Of a DNA stretch of 6,794 bases, positions 386 to 5,425 are shown in pieces; the stretch's first letter is position 1; each line of letters opens with the position of its first letter. The position numbers and the translations under genes are program-made. A model generated the notes under the pieces. It was not told the DNA's origin, ran no database searches, and saw nothing but the letters and a program-made list of their open reading frames with translations. The stretch is from a virus (Duplodnaviria > Heunggongvirae > Uroviricota > Caudoviricetes): IMG/VR virus record IMGVR_UViG_2713897190_000004; one strand, 5' to 3'.

Positions 386-596
386 GTCTCATACTCCGGT
401 TAACGATGAAACCATGCAGGAGATTAACACTCTGCTGATCGCCCTGGATAAAACATGGGATGACGACTTATTGCCGCTCTGTTCCCAGATATTTCGCCGC
501 GACATTCGCGCATCGTCAGAACTGACACAGGCCGAAGCAGTGAAAGCTCTTGGATTCCTGAAACAGAAAGCCACTGAGCAGAAGGTGGCAGCATGA
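386..596 (+). pseudogene. bet: 3' fragment of bet (Red-beta single-strand annealing protein); the N-terminal roughly 190 codons are missing.
   Basis: The translation ...[67 protein letters not shown] matches the C-terminus of lambda Bet as I recall it. Its stop overlaps the exo start (ATGA at 593..596), as in lambda. The same frame has a stop at 291..293, and residues encoded by 294..385 do not resemble Bet, so the gene is truncated or replaced at about 380..390. Confidence 0.75.
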
Positions 597-1273
597 CACC
601 GGACATTATCCTGCAGCGTACCGGGATCGACGTGAGAGCTGTCGAACAGGGGGATGATGCATGGCACAAATTACGGCTCGGCGTCATCACCGCTTCAGAA
701 GTTCACAACGTGATAGCAAAACCCCGCTCCGGAAAGAAATGGCCTGACATGAAAATGTCCTACTTCCACACCCTGCTTGCTGAGGTTTGCACCGGTGTGG
801 CTCCGGAAGTTAACGCTAAGGCGCTGGCTTGGGGAAAACAGTACGAGAACGACGCCAGAGCCCTGTTTGAGTTTACTTCCGGCGTGAATGTTACTGAATC
901 CCCGATCATCTATCGCGACGAAAGTATGCGCACCGCCTGCTCTCCCGATGGTTTATGCAGTGACGGCAACGGCCTTGAGCTGAAATGCCCGTTTACCTCC
1001 CGGGATTTCATGAAGTTCCGGCTCGGTGGTTTCGAGGCCATAAAATCGGCTTACATGGCCCAGGTGCAGTACAGCATGTGGGTGACGCGAAAAGATGCCT
1101 GGTACTTTGCCAACTATGACCCGCGTATGAAGCGTGAAGGACTGCATTATGTCGTGGTTGAGCGGGATGAAAAGTACATGGCGAGTTTTGACGAGATGGT
1201 GCCGGAGTTCATCGAAAAAATGGACGAGGCACTGGCTGAAATTAGTTTTGTATTTGGGGAGCAATGGCGATGA
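593..1273 (+). CDS. exo: Lambda exonuclease (Red-alpha, 5'-3' dsDNA exonuclease), full length, 226 aa.
   Basis: 226-aa [57 protein letters not shown]..., which is near-identical to lambda Exo as I recall it. SD-like AAGGTGG lies upstream, and the start overlaps the stop of the bet fragment. Confidence 0.95.
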
Positions 1274-2006: not shown

Positions 2007-2228
2007 ATGGCGGACATCATTGATTCAGCATCAGAAATTGAAGAATTACAGCGCAATACAGCAATAAAAATGCGTCGTCTGAACTACCAGACTATATCCG
2101 CCACTCATTGTTGTGAGTGTGGCGATCCCATAGATGAACGAAGACGCCTGGTCGTTCAGGGTTGTCGGACTTGTGCAAGTTGCCAGGAGGATCTGGAGCT
2201 TATCAGTAAACAGAGAGGTTCGAAGTGA
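2007..2228 (+). CDS. TraR/DksA-family C4 zinc-finger protein (lambda orf73-like); likely binds the RNA polymerase secondary channel.
   Basis: 73-aa ORF with the motif CCECGDPIDERRRLVVQGCRTCASC (CxxC-17-CxxC), the pattern seen in F-plasmid TraR and the DksA C-terminus. An SD-like AGGGA lies upstream. Confidence 0.85.
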   Translation: MADIIDSASEIEELQRNTAIKMRRLNYQTISATHCCECGDPIDERRRLVVQGCRTCASCQEDLELISKQRGSK

Positions 2229-2989
2229 GCGAAATTAACTATCAGGCACTGCGTGAAGCGGCAGAAAAAGCAACGTGTGGTGAGTGGTCGCTCGAATATG
2301 GAGAGAGCCGATTTGATGGTGATTATGCGCTAATTCATCGTGAAGTTGCTGGATATATTCCCATTTGCAGAATTGAAGGAGCGCATCCAGAAAGCGGTTT
2401 CGATGAAGATTTCCAAATGGAACAGCAGGCCAATGCTGAATTCATCGCCGCAGCCAATCCGGCTACTGTGCTGGCACTGCTGGATGAACGGGAAAGAAAC
2501 CAGCAATACATAAAACGCCGCGACCAGGAGAACGAGGATATTGCTCTTACTGTTGGGAAGCTGAGAGTTGAGCTTGAGGAGACAAAATCAAAACTCAACG
2601 AGCAGCGTGAGTATTACGAAGGTGTTATCTCGGATGGGGGTAAGCGTATTGCTGAACTGGAGAAAAGCGAAGAGCAACTCATTAACGAGCGTGACCATGC
2701 TGAATCTGCTTTAGCAGATATGTACTTTGCAGCAACCGGGGATGAGCCGGAGTGGAGCAACTGGTTCGGCTTTTCAGATGCTGTCGATGCCGTGGTTGAC
2801 AGAATTGCTGATTTAGAAGCTAAACAGCCATCACCAGTAGTACCGGAAGGACTGGTTAAAGCAGTGCGCTTCTATGAACAGGTTAAGCGTGAAAATCCAC
2901 CAGTCGAAACAGAGGCATGGAAAGACGCTATTGACTGGGTGCTCAAAGAGTCTTGTCAGGCTGTAAACATTGATACCAATGGAGATTGA
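2225..2989 (+). CDS. ea22: Ea22-like protein, 254 aa, with a coiled-coil-prone central region.
   Basis: GTG start overlaps the stop of the TraR-like gene (GTGA at 2225..2228), with GAGGT 6 nt upstream. The N-terminus MSEINYQALREAAE... and the central block LLDERERNQQYIKRRDQENEDIALTVGKLRVELEE..KSKLNEQREYYEGVISDG match lambda Ea22 as I recall it; the rest diverges. Confidence 0.75.
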   Translation: MSEINYQALREAAEKATCGEWSLEYGESRFDGDYALIHREVAGYIPICRIEGAHPESGFDEDFQMEQQANAEFIAAANPATVLALLDERERNQQYIKRRDQENEDIALTVGKLRVELEETKSKLNEQREYYEGVISDGGKRIAELEKSEEQLINERDHAESALADMYFAATGDEPEWSNWFGFSDAVDAVVDRIADLEAKQPSPVVPEGLVKAVRFYEQVKRENPPVETEAWKDAIDWVLKESCQAVNIDTNGD

Positions 2990-2990
2990 T

Positions 2991-3245
2991 ATGAGCACTT
3001 TTACCGACAAAGAACTGATTAAAGAAATCAAAGAGCGTATCAGCAGTTTGGATGTGCGAGACAATGTTGAGCGCCGGGCTTATGAAATTGCTCTGGCATC
3101 GCTGGAAGAGAATCCGGTGGCATGGCTGCATTCAGACAATGGCTTAGGTATTCCGGCAATAACGAGGAGTAAAAACATTGCTGACAGTTGGTTATCAAAG
3201 GGTTGGTATGTTCAGCCGCTATATATGCCAAGCCAGTGCCAGTAG
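2991..3245 (+). CDS. Hypothetical protein, 84 aa as read; probably the N-terminal piece of a frameshifted paralog of the 4004..4744 gene.
   Basis: ATG at 2991 with GGAG 6 nt upstream, 1 nt after the ea22-like stop. Its N-terminus MSTFTDKELIKEIKERISSL...RRAYEIALASLEENP parallels the N-terminus of the 4004 product (MTTITKERIELFIKNPL...MELARIALASLEREQ). Confidence 0.55.
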   Translation: MSTFTDKELIKEIKERISSLDVRDNVERRAYEIALASLEENPVAWLHSDNGLGIPAITRSKNIADSWLSKGWYVQPLYMPSQCQ

Positions 3246-3262
3246 TACCTGAAGAAAAACCA

Positions 3263-3796
3263 ATGCCTAACCCTCTTAGCATGTACGCGGTCGATGCTGT
3301 TGCCGCTATTGCAGAGGTGAGAGGCTGGAACGCCTGCCGCGCGGCTATGCTTCATGCCGGAAACTTTCGGGAAAACGCGAATTCGTCAACCAATAATTTT
3401 CGGGAAATTTCGGAAACGTCAACCAACTCTCCGGTAATTCCTGGTGAGGTGTTGTCCGCAATCCTGAAATTTGCCAGAGTTCGTGCTGATTTCGATGATT
3501 TTGACGGCGACAGGCGAGGTATCGGTGATTGTCTGGATGAGGCTGAGCAAGAGCTTATCGTTACCATTAACAAATATGCCAGTCAGTTGGCAGCAGAACC
3601 GATAGCGACTAATGACGTTCGAGAGCAGCAGACAGCCGTTCCGCCAGTTCCTGTAATACAGGCTGATGTCGCGCAAGCAATTGAAAATCTCAGGCAGAAG
3701 TTAGTGGAATGCAATCGCTATAACTACTGCGCAGATGCAGTTAAGGGCGTAGAGGATGCCTGCCACGCTGCCATGCTTCAGGGAAAAAGAGAGTGA
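3263..3796 (+). CDS. Hypothetical protein; probably the C-terminal piece of the same frameshifted gene. Start uncertain (frame open from 3185; ATG at 3263 or 3281).
   Basis: ORF in the frame of 3188..3796. No convincing SD precedes any candidate start, unlike every other gene in the operon. Contains NSPVIP, encoded by an 18-bp stretch identical to one in the 4004..4744 gene. Stop at 3794..3796 lies 1 nt before the next start. Confidence 0.5.
   Translation: MPNPLSMYAVDAVAAIAEVRGWNACRAAMLHAGNFRENANSSTNNFREISETSTNSPVIPGEVLSAILKFARVRADFDDFDGDRRGIGDCLDEAEQELIVTINKYASQLAAEPIATNDVREQQTAVPPVPVIQADVAQAIENLRQKLVECNRYNYCADAVKGVEDACHAAMLQGKRE
3362..3427 (+). repeat. Imperfect 33-bp (11-codon) tandem duplication inside the 3263..3796 coding region.
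   Basis: Two adjacent units, aactttcgggaaaacgcgaattcgtcaaccaat and aattttcgggaaatttcggaaacgtcaaccaac, encoding NFRENANSSTN and NFREISETSTN in frame. Confidence 0.6.
3424..3441 (+). repeat. 18-bp exact direct repeat (copy 1), caactctccggtaattcc, encoding NSPVIP.
   Basis: Identical 18-mer found again at 4411..4428 inside the paralogous gene. Confidence 0.8.
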
Positions 3797-3797
3797 T

Positions 3798-4007
3798 ATG
3801 GCTATTGCCGCAAGTTACACCATGCATCTCTATTGTGATTGTCGCCAGTGTACGGAAGGTGTATATCCAGTGCCAGACTTCGGTGAGTATATCGGTACGT
3901 CATGGTCTGGTTGTGCAAAAGAGGCCCGTAAAGACGGGTGGCGAATAAGCAAAGACAAAACACGTACTTTTGCGCCCGGGCATAAAGTTTTGAGGATTAA
4001 CACATGA
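3798..4007 (+). CDS. Small cysteine-rich protein, 69 aa, possible Zn-binding; function unknown.
   Basis: ATG at 3798 with AGAGAG upstream. Translation MAIAASYTMHLYCDCRQCTEGVYPVPDFGEYIGTSWSGCAKEARKDGWRISKDKTRTFAPGHKVLRINT has a C-x-C-x2-C cluster plus a distal Cys and His. Its stop overlaps the next start (ATGA at 4004..4007). Confidence 0.6.
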   Translation: MAIAASYTMHLYCDCRQCTEGVYPVPDFGEYIGTSWSGCAKEARKDGWRISKDKTRTFAPGHKVLRINT

Positions 4008-4744
4008 CCACTATTACCAAAGAACGTATTGAATTGTTCATTAAAAATCCGCTTGAAAACGGGCTTACTCGTGGCGAACAAATGGAACTAGCACGAATTG
4101 CACTGGCATCACTGGAACGCGAACAGATTCGCCACGAGCATGCCAAATGGTCTGACTCCACATTTGGCTGCGTTGGCCCCATTGGTCCACTGAAACACCT
4201 CTCAAAAGAGGCACTGGAAGCCGCAGCCGAACCAGACGATCTTAGCGAGTGGGCTGATATGCAGTTTCTGTTGTGGGATGCACAGCGCCGTGCTGGCATC
4301 AGCGATGCTGAAATTACCGTTGCTATGGAAGATAAATTGAAGATCAACATGGAGCGCCAGTGGCCTGAGCCAAAAGATGGTGAGCCTCGCTTGCACATTA
4401 AAGAACCCGGCAACTCTCCGGTAATTCCGGATGGTTTATCCACGGTATGCGCTGAGGCTTATCAGGTTGTAGGAGTTATGGCAGATGCGCTTGGTGTATT
4501 CGGTGATGCAGCAGTACAGAAAGTTCTGGATAACCTGTCACAGCAAAAACTTGTTCACAGAGATGTGCTGCCGTTCTCGCTTCCGGTAACTCCGGATGGT
4601 TGGGTTATGGTTCCTAAACAGGTAACGCCGGAAATCAGCAACGCGATAAACGTTGTGGGTCAACGCTGTACATGCGGAAATTGCTCTCAGCGGTTGTGGG
4701 ATTTATTACTCGACGCCACACAGCAAGGAGTTAACCGTGGCTAA
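4004..4744 (+). CDS. Hypothetical protein, 246 aa; intact paralog of the 2991..3796 locus.
   Basis: ATG at 4004 with GAGGA 7 nt upstream. Shares the IALASLE N-terminal motif and the NSPVIP motif with the upstream locus. C-terminus contains CTCGNC. Confidence 0.75.
   Translation: MTTITKERIELFIKNPLENGLTRGEQMELARIALASLEREQIRHEHAKWSDSTFGCVGPIGPLKHLSKEALEAAAEPDDLSEWADMQFLLWDAQRRAGISDAEITVAMEDKLKINMERQWPEPKDGEPRLHIKEPGNSPVIPDGLSTVCAEAYQVVGVMADALGVFGDAAVQKVLDNLSQQKLVHRDVLPFSLPVTPDGWVMVPKQVTPEISNAINVVGQRCTCGNCSQRLWDLLLDATQQGVNRG
4411..4428 (+). repeat. 18-bp exact direct repeat (copy 2), caactctccggtaattcc, encoding NSPVIP.
   Basis: Identical to 3424..3441. Flanking bases differ on both sides. Confidence 0.8.
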
Positions 4745-5021
4745 CCTGCAACTTGCCGTTAAAGGTGAATACTTCGATGCCATGATTCGCGGAGAGAAAA
4801 CGGAAGAGTATCGCCTGTGTAATGACTACTGGAAAAAGCGCCTCGTTAACCGTAAGCATGACCGCCTGATTATCACAAAGGGATATCCGAAGCGCGACGA
4901 TTCCAGCCGCAGAGTTGATGTTCCGTATGACGGATATGAAGTGAAGACAATCACACATCCGCACTTCGGTGATAAACCGGTAAAGGTATACGCGATAAAG
5001 GTAAATATCGGCACTGAATAA
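4737..5021 (+). CDS. ASCH/PUA-like domain protein (putative), 94 aa from the GTG start.
   Basis: GTG at 4737 preceded by AAGGAG (4725..4730) at 6-nt spacing, overlapping the stop of the previous gene. The N-terminal LAVKGEYFDAMIRGEKTEEYR resembles the G-x-K-T-x-E-x-R signature of ASCH-domain proteins (for example E. coli YqfB), from memory. Confidence 0.6.
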   Translation: MANLQLAVKGEYFDAMIRGEKTEEYRLCNDYWKKRLVNRKHDRLIITKGYPKRDDSSRRVDVPYDGYEVKTITHPHFGDKPVKVYAIKVNIGTE

Positions 5022-5046
5022 CAATCCGCACAACACAAGGTCAAGA

Positions 5047-5286
5047 ATGTTCAGAGTGATTTACCCTAACACCTGGTACGTCGACCACCACGGCACTCCC
5101 TGCAAAATCCTGCGTTCCACTCACAACAAAGTTCACTACATCCGAAAAGGCAGAACATGTATCGCCAGCATGTTCCGCTTTAATCATGACTTTGAACCTG
5201 TGAATAAAGCTGACGCAGATCGGATAGCTGAAGAGATCGAAACAGCAGAACACATTAAGAAGTTACGTGCCATACGCAGGAAATAG
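5047..5286 (+). CDS. Hypothetical protein, 79 aa, basic C-terminus.
   Basis: ATG at 5047 with AAGG 6 nt upstream. Last gene before the AT-rich spacer that precedes xis. No recognisable motif. Confidence 0.55.
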   Translation: MFRVIYPNTWYVDHHGTPCKILRSTHNKVHYIRKGRTCIASMFRFNHDFEPVNKADADRIAEEIETAEHIKKLRAIRRK

Positions 5287-5425
5287 AAAAATTGATAAAT
5301 TCAATACTGCATTTCTCAGCATTAAATTTATCTCTATGACCAGTCAAGAGATGTACCTGCCATGAGCTTAATATCATGTCAGATATATCGGTCACAAACT
5401 CCCTCAGCAGCTAAGAGGAGGACAA

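Follow-up and report, generated by a model that had tools for sequence, protein, structure and literature searches.

A small, most likely zinc-binding accessory protein of the phrog_926 family in the early-left region of a lambdoid prophage

What kind of protein is made by a short gene wedged between two larger ones in the early region of a lambdoid prophage, and what might it do there? We address this question for a small open reading frame (ORF) in a 6,794-nucleotide stretch of tailed-phage DNA (IMG/VR record IMGVR_UViG_2713897190_000004), hereafter the window. The initial annotation had described a 69-amino-acid (aa) ORF at 3798-4007 on the plus strand that carries a C-x-C-x2-C motif, a further Cys and a C-terminal His and that overlaps the start of the next gene. 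The sequence bears this out, as C13/C15/C18, C39 and H62 read as described and an ATGA spans the overlap, and PGAP annotation of identical prophages contains the same ORF. The small ORF is a genuine, selected gene of an uncharacterised, widely spread phage family. The best explanation of the evidence as a whole is a metal-stapled phage early accessory protein acting via a basic face, to which we assign a probability of about 0.6.

In phages, host-takeover and anti-defence functions reside mainly in small early accessory proteins, most of which are unnamed. The family described here is unusually widespread for a protein of this kind: 12% of complete E. coli genomes have a copy, and it is also carried by Shiga-toxin phages, phage-plasmids and large virulent phages that are candidates for therapy. 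It is new to Pfam, to structure databases and to the literature, which hold no model, structure or paper on it. The exo-xis region, in which the gene lies, influences the choice between lysis and lysogeny as well as the induction of Stx prophages (PMC8614690); a target for the small protein, if found, would add a function to this poorly understood region. On present evidence the protein is an ordinary kind of object, namely a conserved hypothetical small zinc protein without a structural match. The ligand-swap pattern reported below provides a clean, testable definition of the family, and the confident structural model provides a starting point.

Conservation and distribution of the small gene

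The product of the small ORF matches phrog_926, a family of unknown function, over its full length (residues 1-68 against profile positions 1-68 of 69, E 3.6e-36, 124 bits). This is its only family membership and, because phrog_926 has no assigned function, it is silent on mechanism. A word-indexed search returned 45 close relatives in Escherichia, Salmonella, Shigella, Kosakonia and Pantoea, and an exhaustive profile search returned 328 clusters at 50% identity (E<=1e-3), nearly all of them 60-85 aa long. Across the family, conservation falls to ~30% identity with G47/W48 invariant and the ligand positions kept. The dN/dS ratio against the copy in VT2-Sakai, a Stx2 phage, was 0.18, and the gene is under purifying selection.

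Copies were detected with tblastn in 433 phage records, which include lambdoid and Stx2 phages (among them VT2-Sakai orf7), Klebsiella phages and, among virulent phages, Ackermannviridae and Drexlerviridae (Rogunavirus). At >=80% nucleotide identity, the gene was detected in 666 of the 5426 complete E. coli genomes, with <=6 copies per genome. Plasmids of roughly 86-99 kb account for 177 of the 810 E. coli places, and the plasmid copy that was inspected lies on a phage-plasmid (NZ_CP022228.3, 89951-90160; locus L182, 3501-3710) with a DUF1382/Ea22-like block of its own, where a DUF551 gene and an 'eaa' gene come after the small ORF.

The start of the gene was placed at 3798 by RefSeq/PGAP and by the N-terminus shared across the family, M-(A)-I-x-x-G/S-Y. 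A mechanical ORF list opens the frame at an in-frame upstream ATG (3756), giving 83 aa; this longer reading is unsupported because homologs begin at the conserved N-terminal motif. Named homologs are all 'hypothetical protein' and none has a Pfam domain, and a Pfam scan of 69 relatives gave scattered chance matches only. The small protein is not covered in Donaldson's modelling paper on the exo-xis region, and a term search of the Phi24B exo-xis paper gave no relevant ORF names.

Two side observations concern the annotation and the architecture of family members. In many Ackermannviridae genomes the homologous ORF carries no annotated feature (e.g. NC_049500.1, KR296692.1, NC_016073.1 and KY942057.1 / L091 3001-3207); these homologs are 38-46% identical to the small protein and occupy the same site, after a dCMP deaminase gene and a membrane-protein gene. 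One member of 134 aa (P0046) consists of two copies of the small protein, arranged head to tail and joined via a translated junction, '...AVLKESDMAIAAS...', and two others (P0199 and P0200; 132 and 134 aa) are of similar length and are 87-97% identical to the small ORF. The cassette may thus duplicate in tandem.

Metal site and predicted fold

Residue conservation was assessed in three sets, comprising 13 close homologs, 69 diverse members and 146 full-length members. C13, C15, C18 and H62 are invariant in the close homologs. Position 62 is H or C in 67 of the 69 diverse members (H 49, C 18), whereas C15, C59 and C39 are unevenly kept (46, 26 and 35 of 69, respectively), with position 59 being A in 38 members and C in 26. 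Among the full-length members C15 and C59 are complementary: 79 have C15 only, 62 have C59 only, five have both and none has neither. Exactly four C/H residues occupy positions 13, 15, 18, 59 and 62 in 122 of the 146. This complementarity points to a four-ligand structural site whose fourth ligand would be supplied from either of two spatially adjacent positions. The protein of the window has the 'C-x-C-x2-C ... A-P-G-H' form, and the other form of the family is 'C-x4-C ... C-P-x-C/H'.

C39 lies on the predicted inward face of a helix, at a position where other members have T, A or V, and is probably no ligand. The metal-binding Cys/His set proposed in the initial annotation was thus upheld for C13, C15, C18 and H62 but not for C39, which only 35 of the 69 diverse members keep; as conservation among homologs holds for four of the five residues, it does not refute the proposal. 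From these patterns, the assignment of the Cys/His residues to a metal site is well supported, and the metal is most likely Zn2+.

An AlphaFold2 (AF2) model built from the 69 sequences (pLDDT 85.5, pTM 0.67), with which a run on 13 sequences was concordant, contains a strand (7-13), a short helix (16-19) that carries part of the ligand cluster, a strand (28-33), a helix (36-45), a short hairpin (48-49, 56-57) and a tail bearing H62. The predicted fold looks like a beta-beta-alpha-beta-beta, beta-grasp-like arrangement in which the metal would staple the C-terminal tail to strand 1. A Foldseek search against the PDB gave no significant match to a solved structure (best E 0.41), and in a structure search of BFVD the matches were members of the family together with a small number of actinophage proteins that are uncharacterised.

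The best-conserved residues other than the ligands are Y7, L11, Y12, G33, A43, G47 (69/69), W48 (68/69) and P60. Lys or Arg predominates at positions 41, 44, 45, 49, 52, 54 and 56 in the diverse members, and the mean charge, -2.4 in the N-terminal part, is +4.8 from the helix onward, where it is positive in 96% of members. Judging from helical periodicity, W36, C39/A40 and A43 would pack inward, and K41, R44 and K45 would form, together with the basic residues of the hairpin, one exposed positive face.

Several known families and folds were compared with the small protein. In a zinc ribbon, two beta-hairpin knuckles, typically CxxC...CxxC, contribute two ligands each. The small protein has one C-x-C-x2-C cluster and a lone His with a helix between them, and it matches no zinc ribbon in Pfam or the PDB. 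We consider that it is not a zinc ribbon because the predicted beta-beta-alpha-beta-beta topology has one cluster after strand 1 and the knuckle in the tail, so the Zn-ribbon label given initially is not retained. Profile searches against the PDB gave weak, local matches, extending over 20-40 residues around 'G-t-s-x-x-C-x-x-e-R-x-D-G-W-R-I'. The close profile matched fibronectin type II domains (PF00040; MMP-2 and MMP-9 repeats) with E 0.0056-0.13, and one eukaryotic protein with such a repeat (P0101) is present among the family profile matches. This candidate was rejected because the similarity spans ~20 residues, the domains are eukaryotic and disulfide-bonded, and the predicted structure disagrees. 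The broad profile matched the ZF-HD homeodomain (PDB 1wh7/1wh5, E 0.034-0.072), for which only the helix and 'GWRI' align; it was rejected because the aligned region is strand-helix-strand in the model. The SWIM motif is C-x-C-x(n)-C-x-H and the CDGSH motif is C-x-C-x2-(S/T)-x3-P-x-C-D-G-(S/A/T)-H. In the small protein the gap between the third Cys and the His is 43 residues, there is no CDGSH string, and neither family is matched in Pfam.

Likenesses of a looser kind are seen with other small proteins. Lar/RalR (PF14354) is likewise a small Cys-rich early accessory protein of prophages, and one member of the phrog_926 family carries a fused Lar-like domain. In Lar a helix comes after two knuckles, whereas the small protein runs cluster, strand 2, helix, hairpin and knuckle, and neither the small ORF nor its 69 relatives match PF14354 at E<=0.1. 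The B1 domain of protein G resembles the predicted beta-beta-alpha-beta-beta, beta-grasp-like arrangement, with scores below any homology threshold; it has no metal site, whereas the small protein has a long ligand-bearing loop between strands 1 and 2 and a tail that is predicted to fold back to the metal.

Lambda Ea8.5 is similar in being a small accessory protein that binds zinc, in having its gene between ea22 and xis, and in its early expression from pL. It is a homeodomain/zinc-finger hybrid, also from the exo-xis region (PDB 2M7A; PMC8614690), and such a combination of homeodomain-like helices and a zinc finger is not found in the small protein. Lambda Orf73 and F-plasmid TraR are C4 zinc finger proteins of ~70 aa that bind in the secondary channel of RNA polymerase; the former is from the same operon, and the window has its own copy. 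TraR is marked by a C4 zinc site and, near its N-terminus, by an acidic DxxDxA motif (PMC8614690), whereas the small ORF has no PF01258 match, lacks the acidic motif and has three Cys and a His as ligands; the window would thus have, in a single early operon, genes for two small zinc proteins that are unrelated to each other. TraR homologs including lambda Orf73 are reported to reprogram host transcription directly (PMC9239242), an example indicating that small zinc proteins of the exo-xis block can act by binding a host machine. By the profile and structure comparisons made, the small protein is no member of the Ea8.5, Orf73/TraR or Lar families; it resembles these small zinc proteins of prophage early operons in kind.

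Proposed function and competing explanations

We propose that the small protein is a single compact beta-beta-alpha-beta-beta domain which, as prediction and conservation strongly suggest, would be stapled by one tetrahedral metal site. The ligands in this copy would be Cys13, Cys15 and Cys18, which follow strand 1, together with His62 of the A-P-G-H knuckle, with Cys59 taking the place of Cys15 in the other half of the family. With low confidence, the working surface may be the basic face made up of K41, R44, K45, the G47-W48 turn and the hairpin residues R49, K52, K54 and R56. Equally tentatively, what this face binds in the early phase of infection or induction could be a polyanion, be it nucleic acid or an acidic protein of the host, and the role might be that of a dispensable host-modulating or counter-defence factor and not of a subunit of the neighbouring proteins. 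As to the target, a nucleic acid and a host or defence protein are equally tenable guesses, each short of an even chance, and a target of another sort is a possibility of somewhat lower standing. A broader proposal, which we regard as rather unlikely, is that the family represents an undescribed zinc-clamped beta-grasp-like fold and is an early effector shared by many tailed phages that are not related to one another (lambdoid, phage-plasmid, Ackermannviridae, Drexlerviridae and metagenomic lineages), in all of which it would be directed at a single target conserved in bacteria, e.g. a nucleic-acid-processing or immune component. If that were true, it would be a widespread and still unnamed host-takeover or counter-defence protein.

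The neighbours of the gene were compared in 80 close IMG/VR loci, found by a locus search with close alignment that covers relatives of 94-100% identity. The next gene is of the leader + DUF550 type in 75 of 78 such loci, and the upstream neighbour falls into nine unrelated clusters among the 80. Conversely, when loci with the DUF550 core were collected, the small ORF was present in 13 of 80 and absent from 67; the identical downstream leader occurs in 26 loci without the small ORF and in 12 with it. No locus was found that has both flanks of the window and lacks the small ORF; only the downstream flank recurs without it. More distant homologs have other surroundings. Those in Kosakonia and Pantoea prophages lie in the nin region after a DnaB-type replication gene, those of Ackermannviridae in last place in an early cluster that includes dCMP deaminase, those of Drexlerviridae and metagenomic phages in arrays of small, unannotated, co-directional ORFs, and those of phage-plasmids directly before a DUF551 gene. 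The varied neighbours and the DUF550 loci without the ORF indicate an optional, mobile cassette with no family-wide partner, one that occurs also in nin regions, phage-plasmids and virulent phages.

One fusion was found among the longer members. In P0086, present in eight contigs, a family member is joined to a Lar-like domain (PF14354, E 4e-4, 21 bits against a curated cut-off of 28.6). In a metagenomic phage (L092) the fused member (2613-2804) and a separate Lar-like gene (5001-5399) lie in one early cluster, which also holds a Pnkp-like kinase/phosphatase, a T4 Rnl1-type RNA ligase, a Pif1 helicase and a dUTPase.

Several points weigh against the proposal of a metal-stapled accessory protein with a basic working face. 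With regard to the target, scans of the small ORF against Pfam, NCBIfam and PADLOC gave no match, literature searches (phrog_926, WP_000951713, accessory/counter-defence) returned no paper on the family, and no neighbour is conserved across the whole family. Apart from the one weak Lar case, domain fusions in longer members gave nothing informative in Pfam. A net basic face fits many functions, and a functional link to the DUF550 gene is compatible with the adjacency seen in 75 of 78 close relatives. With regard to the metal site, the Fisher p of ~1e-35 for the mutual exclusion of C15 and C59 is uncorrected for relatedness, and the count of at least ~11 switches between them, made on a rough neighbour-joining tree built without both columns, is possibly inflated, as a tree of such short sequences is noisy.

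Other explanations differ as to the nature of the gene and of its metal site. The stretch is short, matches neither a Pfam nor an NCBIfam family and lacks an annotation in many records of Ackermannviridae, as would suit a chance ORF in an intergenic or recombination-linker stretch; this is refuted by conservation, given the full-length PHROG match, its depth across the family, the dN/dS of 0.18 and the confident AF2 model, and we give it a negligible probability. The site might instead bind iron or an iron-sulfur cluster, or include a redox-active CxxC, in place of structural zinc. Three Cys and one His are also used by some [2Fe-2S] proteins, the C15-x2-C18 pair is present, and the relatives with four Cys (C-x4-C ... 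C-P-x-C) resemble rubredoxin-type knuckles. The CDGSH spacing is absent, however, no redox partner genes lie nearby, and the free interchange of His and Cys at position 62 and the ligand swap between 15 and 59 are typical of structural Zn sites, which makes this explanation quite improbable. Similarly improbable is the one given initially, that of a classical zinc-ribbon factor in a repeated module with, or as a partner of, two paralogous flanks. The small protein does have a conserved Cys/His motif, its ORF is closely packed against both flanks, and these do share a homologous leader and an NSPVIP linker. Yet the predicted topology lacks two zinc-knuckle hairpins, no zinc ribbon is matched, and the flanks show no significant pairwise similarity (E 0.08-0.3), so that their description as two paralogs stands for a common leader of ~45 aa and the linker and not beyond. 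The case for a module or partnership is weak: the downstream DUF550-type gene is constant in close relatives, but the nine upstream clusters, the 67 DUF550 loci without the ORF and the entirely different neighbours of distant homologs largely refute it.

A partnership with the downstream gene alone deserves separate consideration, in which the small protein would be a dedicated small subunit or regulator of the DUF550 (MazG-like) protein, made in fixed ratio to it via the ATGA overlap. The adjacency in close loci agrees with this, the overlap and the downstream Shine-Dalgarno (SD) sequence inside the small ORF fit coupling, and other members of the family lie near dCMP deaminase (Ackermannviridae), nucleoside deoxyribosyltransferase or dUTPase genes. 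An obligate partnership with DUF550 (PF04447) is nevertheless not what was found, as the pairing holds in one direction (75/78), not in the other (13/80, with 26 of the loci without the ORF having the identical leader), and is absent in distant homologs: those of Kosakonia, Pantoea, phage-plasmids, Drexlerviridae and metagenomic phages are followed by a DUF551 gene or by small ORFs that are unrelated. Recent common descent of one cassette can account for the linkage among close relatives, and we consider a DUF550 subunit unlikely. More credible, although still doubtful, is a counter-defence protein, e.g. an anti-restriction protein, that would bind an immune protein of the host directly and thereby inhibit it. 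Such a role would suit a small, single-domain protein encoded at early, optional accessory positions in temperate and virulent phages, and it is consistent with the Lar-like fusion and with the second Lar-like gene and the Pnkp/Rnl1 tRNA-repair pair in the same early cluster. Against it, the Lar match is a single case below the Pfam cut-off, no family member is so named, and the conserved face is basic, whereas most known nuclease-targeting inhibitors are acidic.

Genomic setting and junctions

The queried stretch of the window is 100% identical to a lambdoid prophage adjoining icd in E. coli CFT073, ATCC 25922, ABU 83972, Combat2C1 and many others. The small ORF belongs to the variable portion of this prophage's exo-xis accessory block (early-left, pL; Table 1). 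The exo-xis region is transcribed early from pL and contains a conserved block of orf60a, orf63, orf61, orf73 and ea22, and the genes 3' of ea22 are a set that varies in number and kind (PMC8614690). In a promoter scan, no promoter-like site lay in the small ORF or next to it. No terminator-like site on the plus strand was found within or beside it either, the overlapping and adjoining ones being on the opposite strand only. The total of sites in the signal scan was within ~1.5 standard deviations of the shuffle expectation, and an Rfam scan of the window found no RNA families.

Table 1. Coordinates of the small ORF, its motifs and junctions, and the surrounding genes of the window
Feature	Position	Strand	Details
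Lambda-type exo	593-1273		
orf60a-like DUF1317 gene, then orf63-like DUF1382 gene, then small hypothetical gene	between exo and TraR/Orf73-like gene		
TraR/DksA C4 zinc finger protein, counterpart of lambda Orf73	2007-2228		73 aa; PF01258, E 8.4e-9
ead/Ea22-like gene	2225-2989		
Upstream flanking gene, frameshifted	2991-3796	+	leader module, phrog_5117-like part and phrog_14306 part (PGAP, PHROG matches)
Junction upstream gene/small ORF	3786-3800	+	AAAGAGAG-TGA-t-ATG; purine-rich SD-like stretch 3786-3793, upstream stop 3794-3796, small ORF start 3798-3800
Small ORF	3798-4007	+	69 aa, product MAIAASYTMHLYCDCRQCTEGVYPVPDFGEYIGTSWSGCAKEARKDGWRISKDKTRTFAPGHKVLRINT; RefSeq WP_000951713.1 'hypothetical protein'; phrog_926 family; ATG 3798-3800, TGA 4005-4007
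N-terminal ligand cluster, codons C13-D-C15-R-Q-C18	3834-3851	+	C13 3834-3836, C15 3840-3842, C18 3849-3851; C13 in 68/69 and C18 in 60/69 diverse members
Codon C39, on helix, probably a buried small residue and no ligand	3912-3914	+	column C 35, T 13, A 12, V 6 of 69
Basic helix-hairpin face, proposed binding surface, codons 41-56 (K-E-A-R-K-D-G-W-R-I-S-K-D-K-T-R)	3918-3965	+	A43 in 67/69
C-terminal knuckle supplying H62, codons 59-62 (A-P-G-H)	3972-3983	+	H62 3981-3983; P60 in 65/69; C-P-x-C/H in the other half of the family
Junction small ORF/next gene	3992-4007	+	GAGGA SD of next gene (3992-3996) inside last codons of small ORF; ATGA stop/start overlap 4004-4007
Downstream flanking gene	4004-4744	+	leader module, DUF550 core (dATP/dGTP pyrophosphohydrolase, PF04447) and C-terminal part; Pfam E 8.2e-42
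ASCH-domain gene overlapping end of DUF550 gene	4653 (longer ORF) or 4737 (PGAP-equivalent start) to 5021		Pfam match of longer ORF weak, E 0.054
DUF4222 gene	5047-5286		E 6.4e-19; followed by xis and int

The small ORF starts one base past the upstream stop (TGAtATG, 3794-3800), and its packing against both neighbours allows translational coupling. Similar strings recur at other junctions of the block. A copy of the 3786-3800 junction with three mismatches lies between ea22 and the next gene (2979-2993), a near-identical AAGGAGAGTGATATG junction precedes DUF550-type genes in loci without the small ORF, and the GAGGATTAACACATGACC junction of 3992-4007 is also present in close loci. More generally, the block junctions (2979-2993, 3786-3800 and 3990-4007; loci L099-L178) share the SD and stop/start strings AAGGAGAGTGATATG, GAGGATTAACACATGA and TTAAGGACTAACAAATGA. 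Depending on the phage, an identical junction string precedes either the small ORF or a DUF550-type gene. From their sequence, the shared junction strings may be recombination points at which cassettes are exchanged.

The flanking genes themselves show traces of shuffling and of uncertain annotation. Both begin with the leader noted above (M-[ST]-T-[FI]-T ... IALASLE), and both leaders match phrog_3323 (E 6.8e-10 and 1.1e-13), phrog_660 and phrog_60; the leader is a shuffled N-terminal module common to the 2991 gene, the 4004 gene and many proteins of these three families. In the upstream gene, deletion of one TA from the TATATAT at 3220-3226 yields a single ORF of 267 aa, and the frameshifted state is the same in CFT073 and Combat2C1, two identical prophages whose annotation was inspected. 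The BLASTP comparison of the two flanks was not significant either before or after repair of this frameshift. For the downstream gene, PGAP cuts the continuous 246-aa ORF into a 126-nucleotide 'pseudogene' and a DUF550 gene from ~4103. This split looks artefactual, because at least 38 IMG/VR loci have the leader and the DUF550 part joined without interruption.

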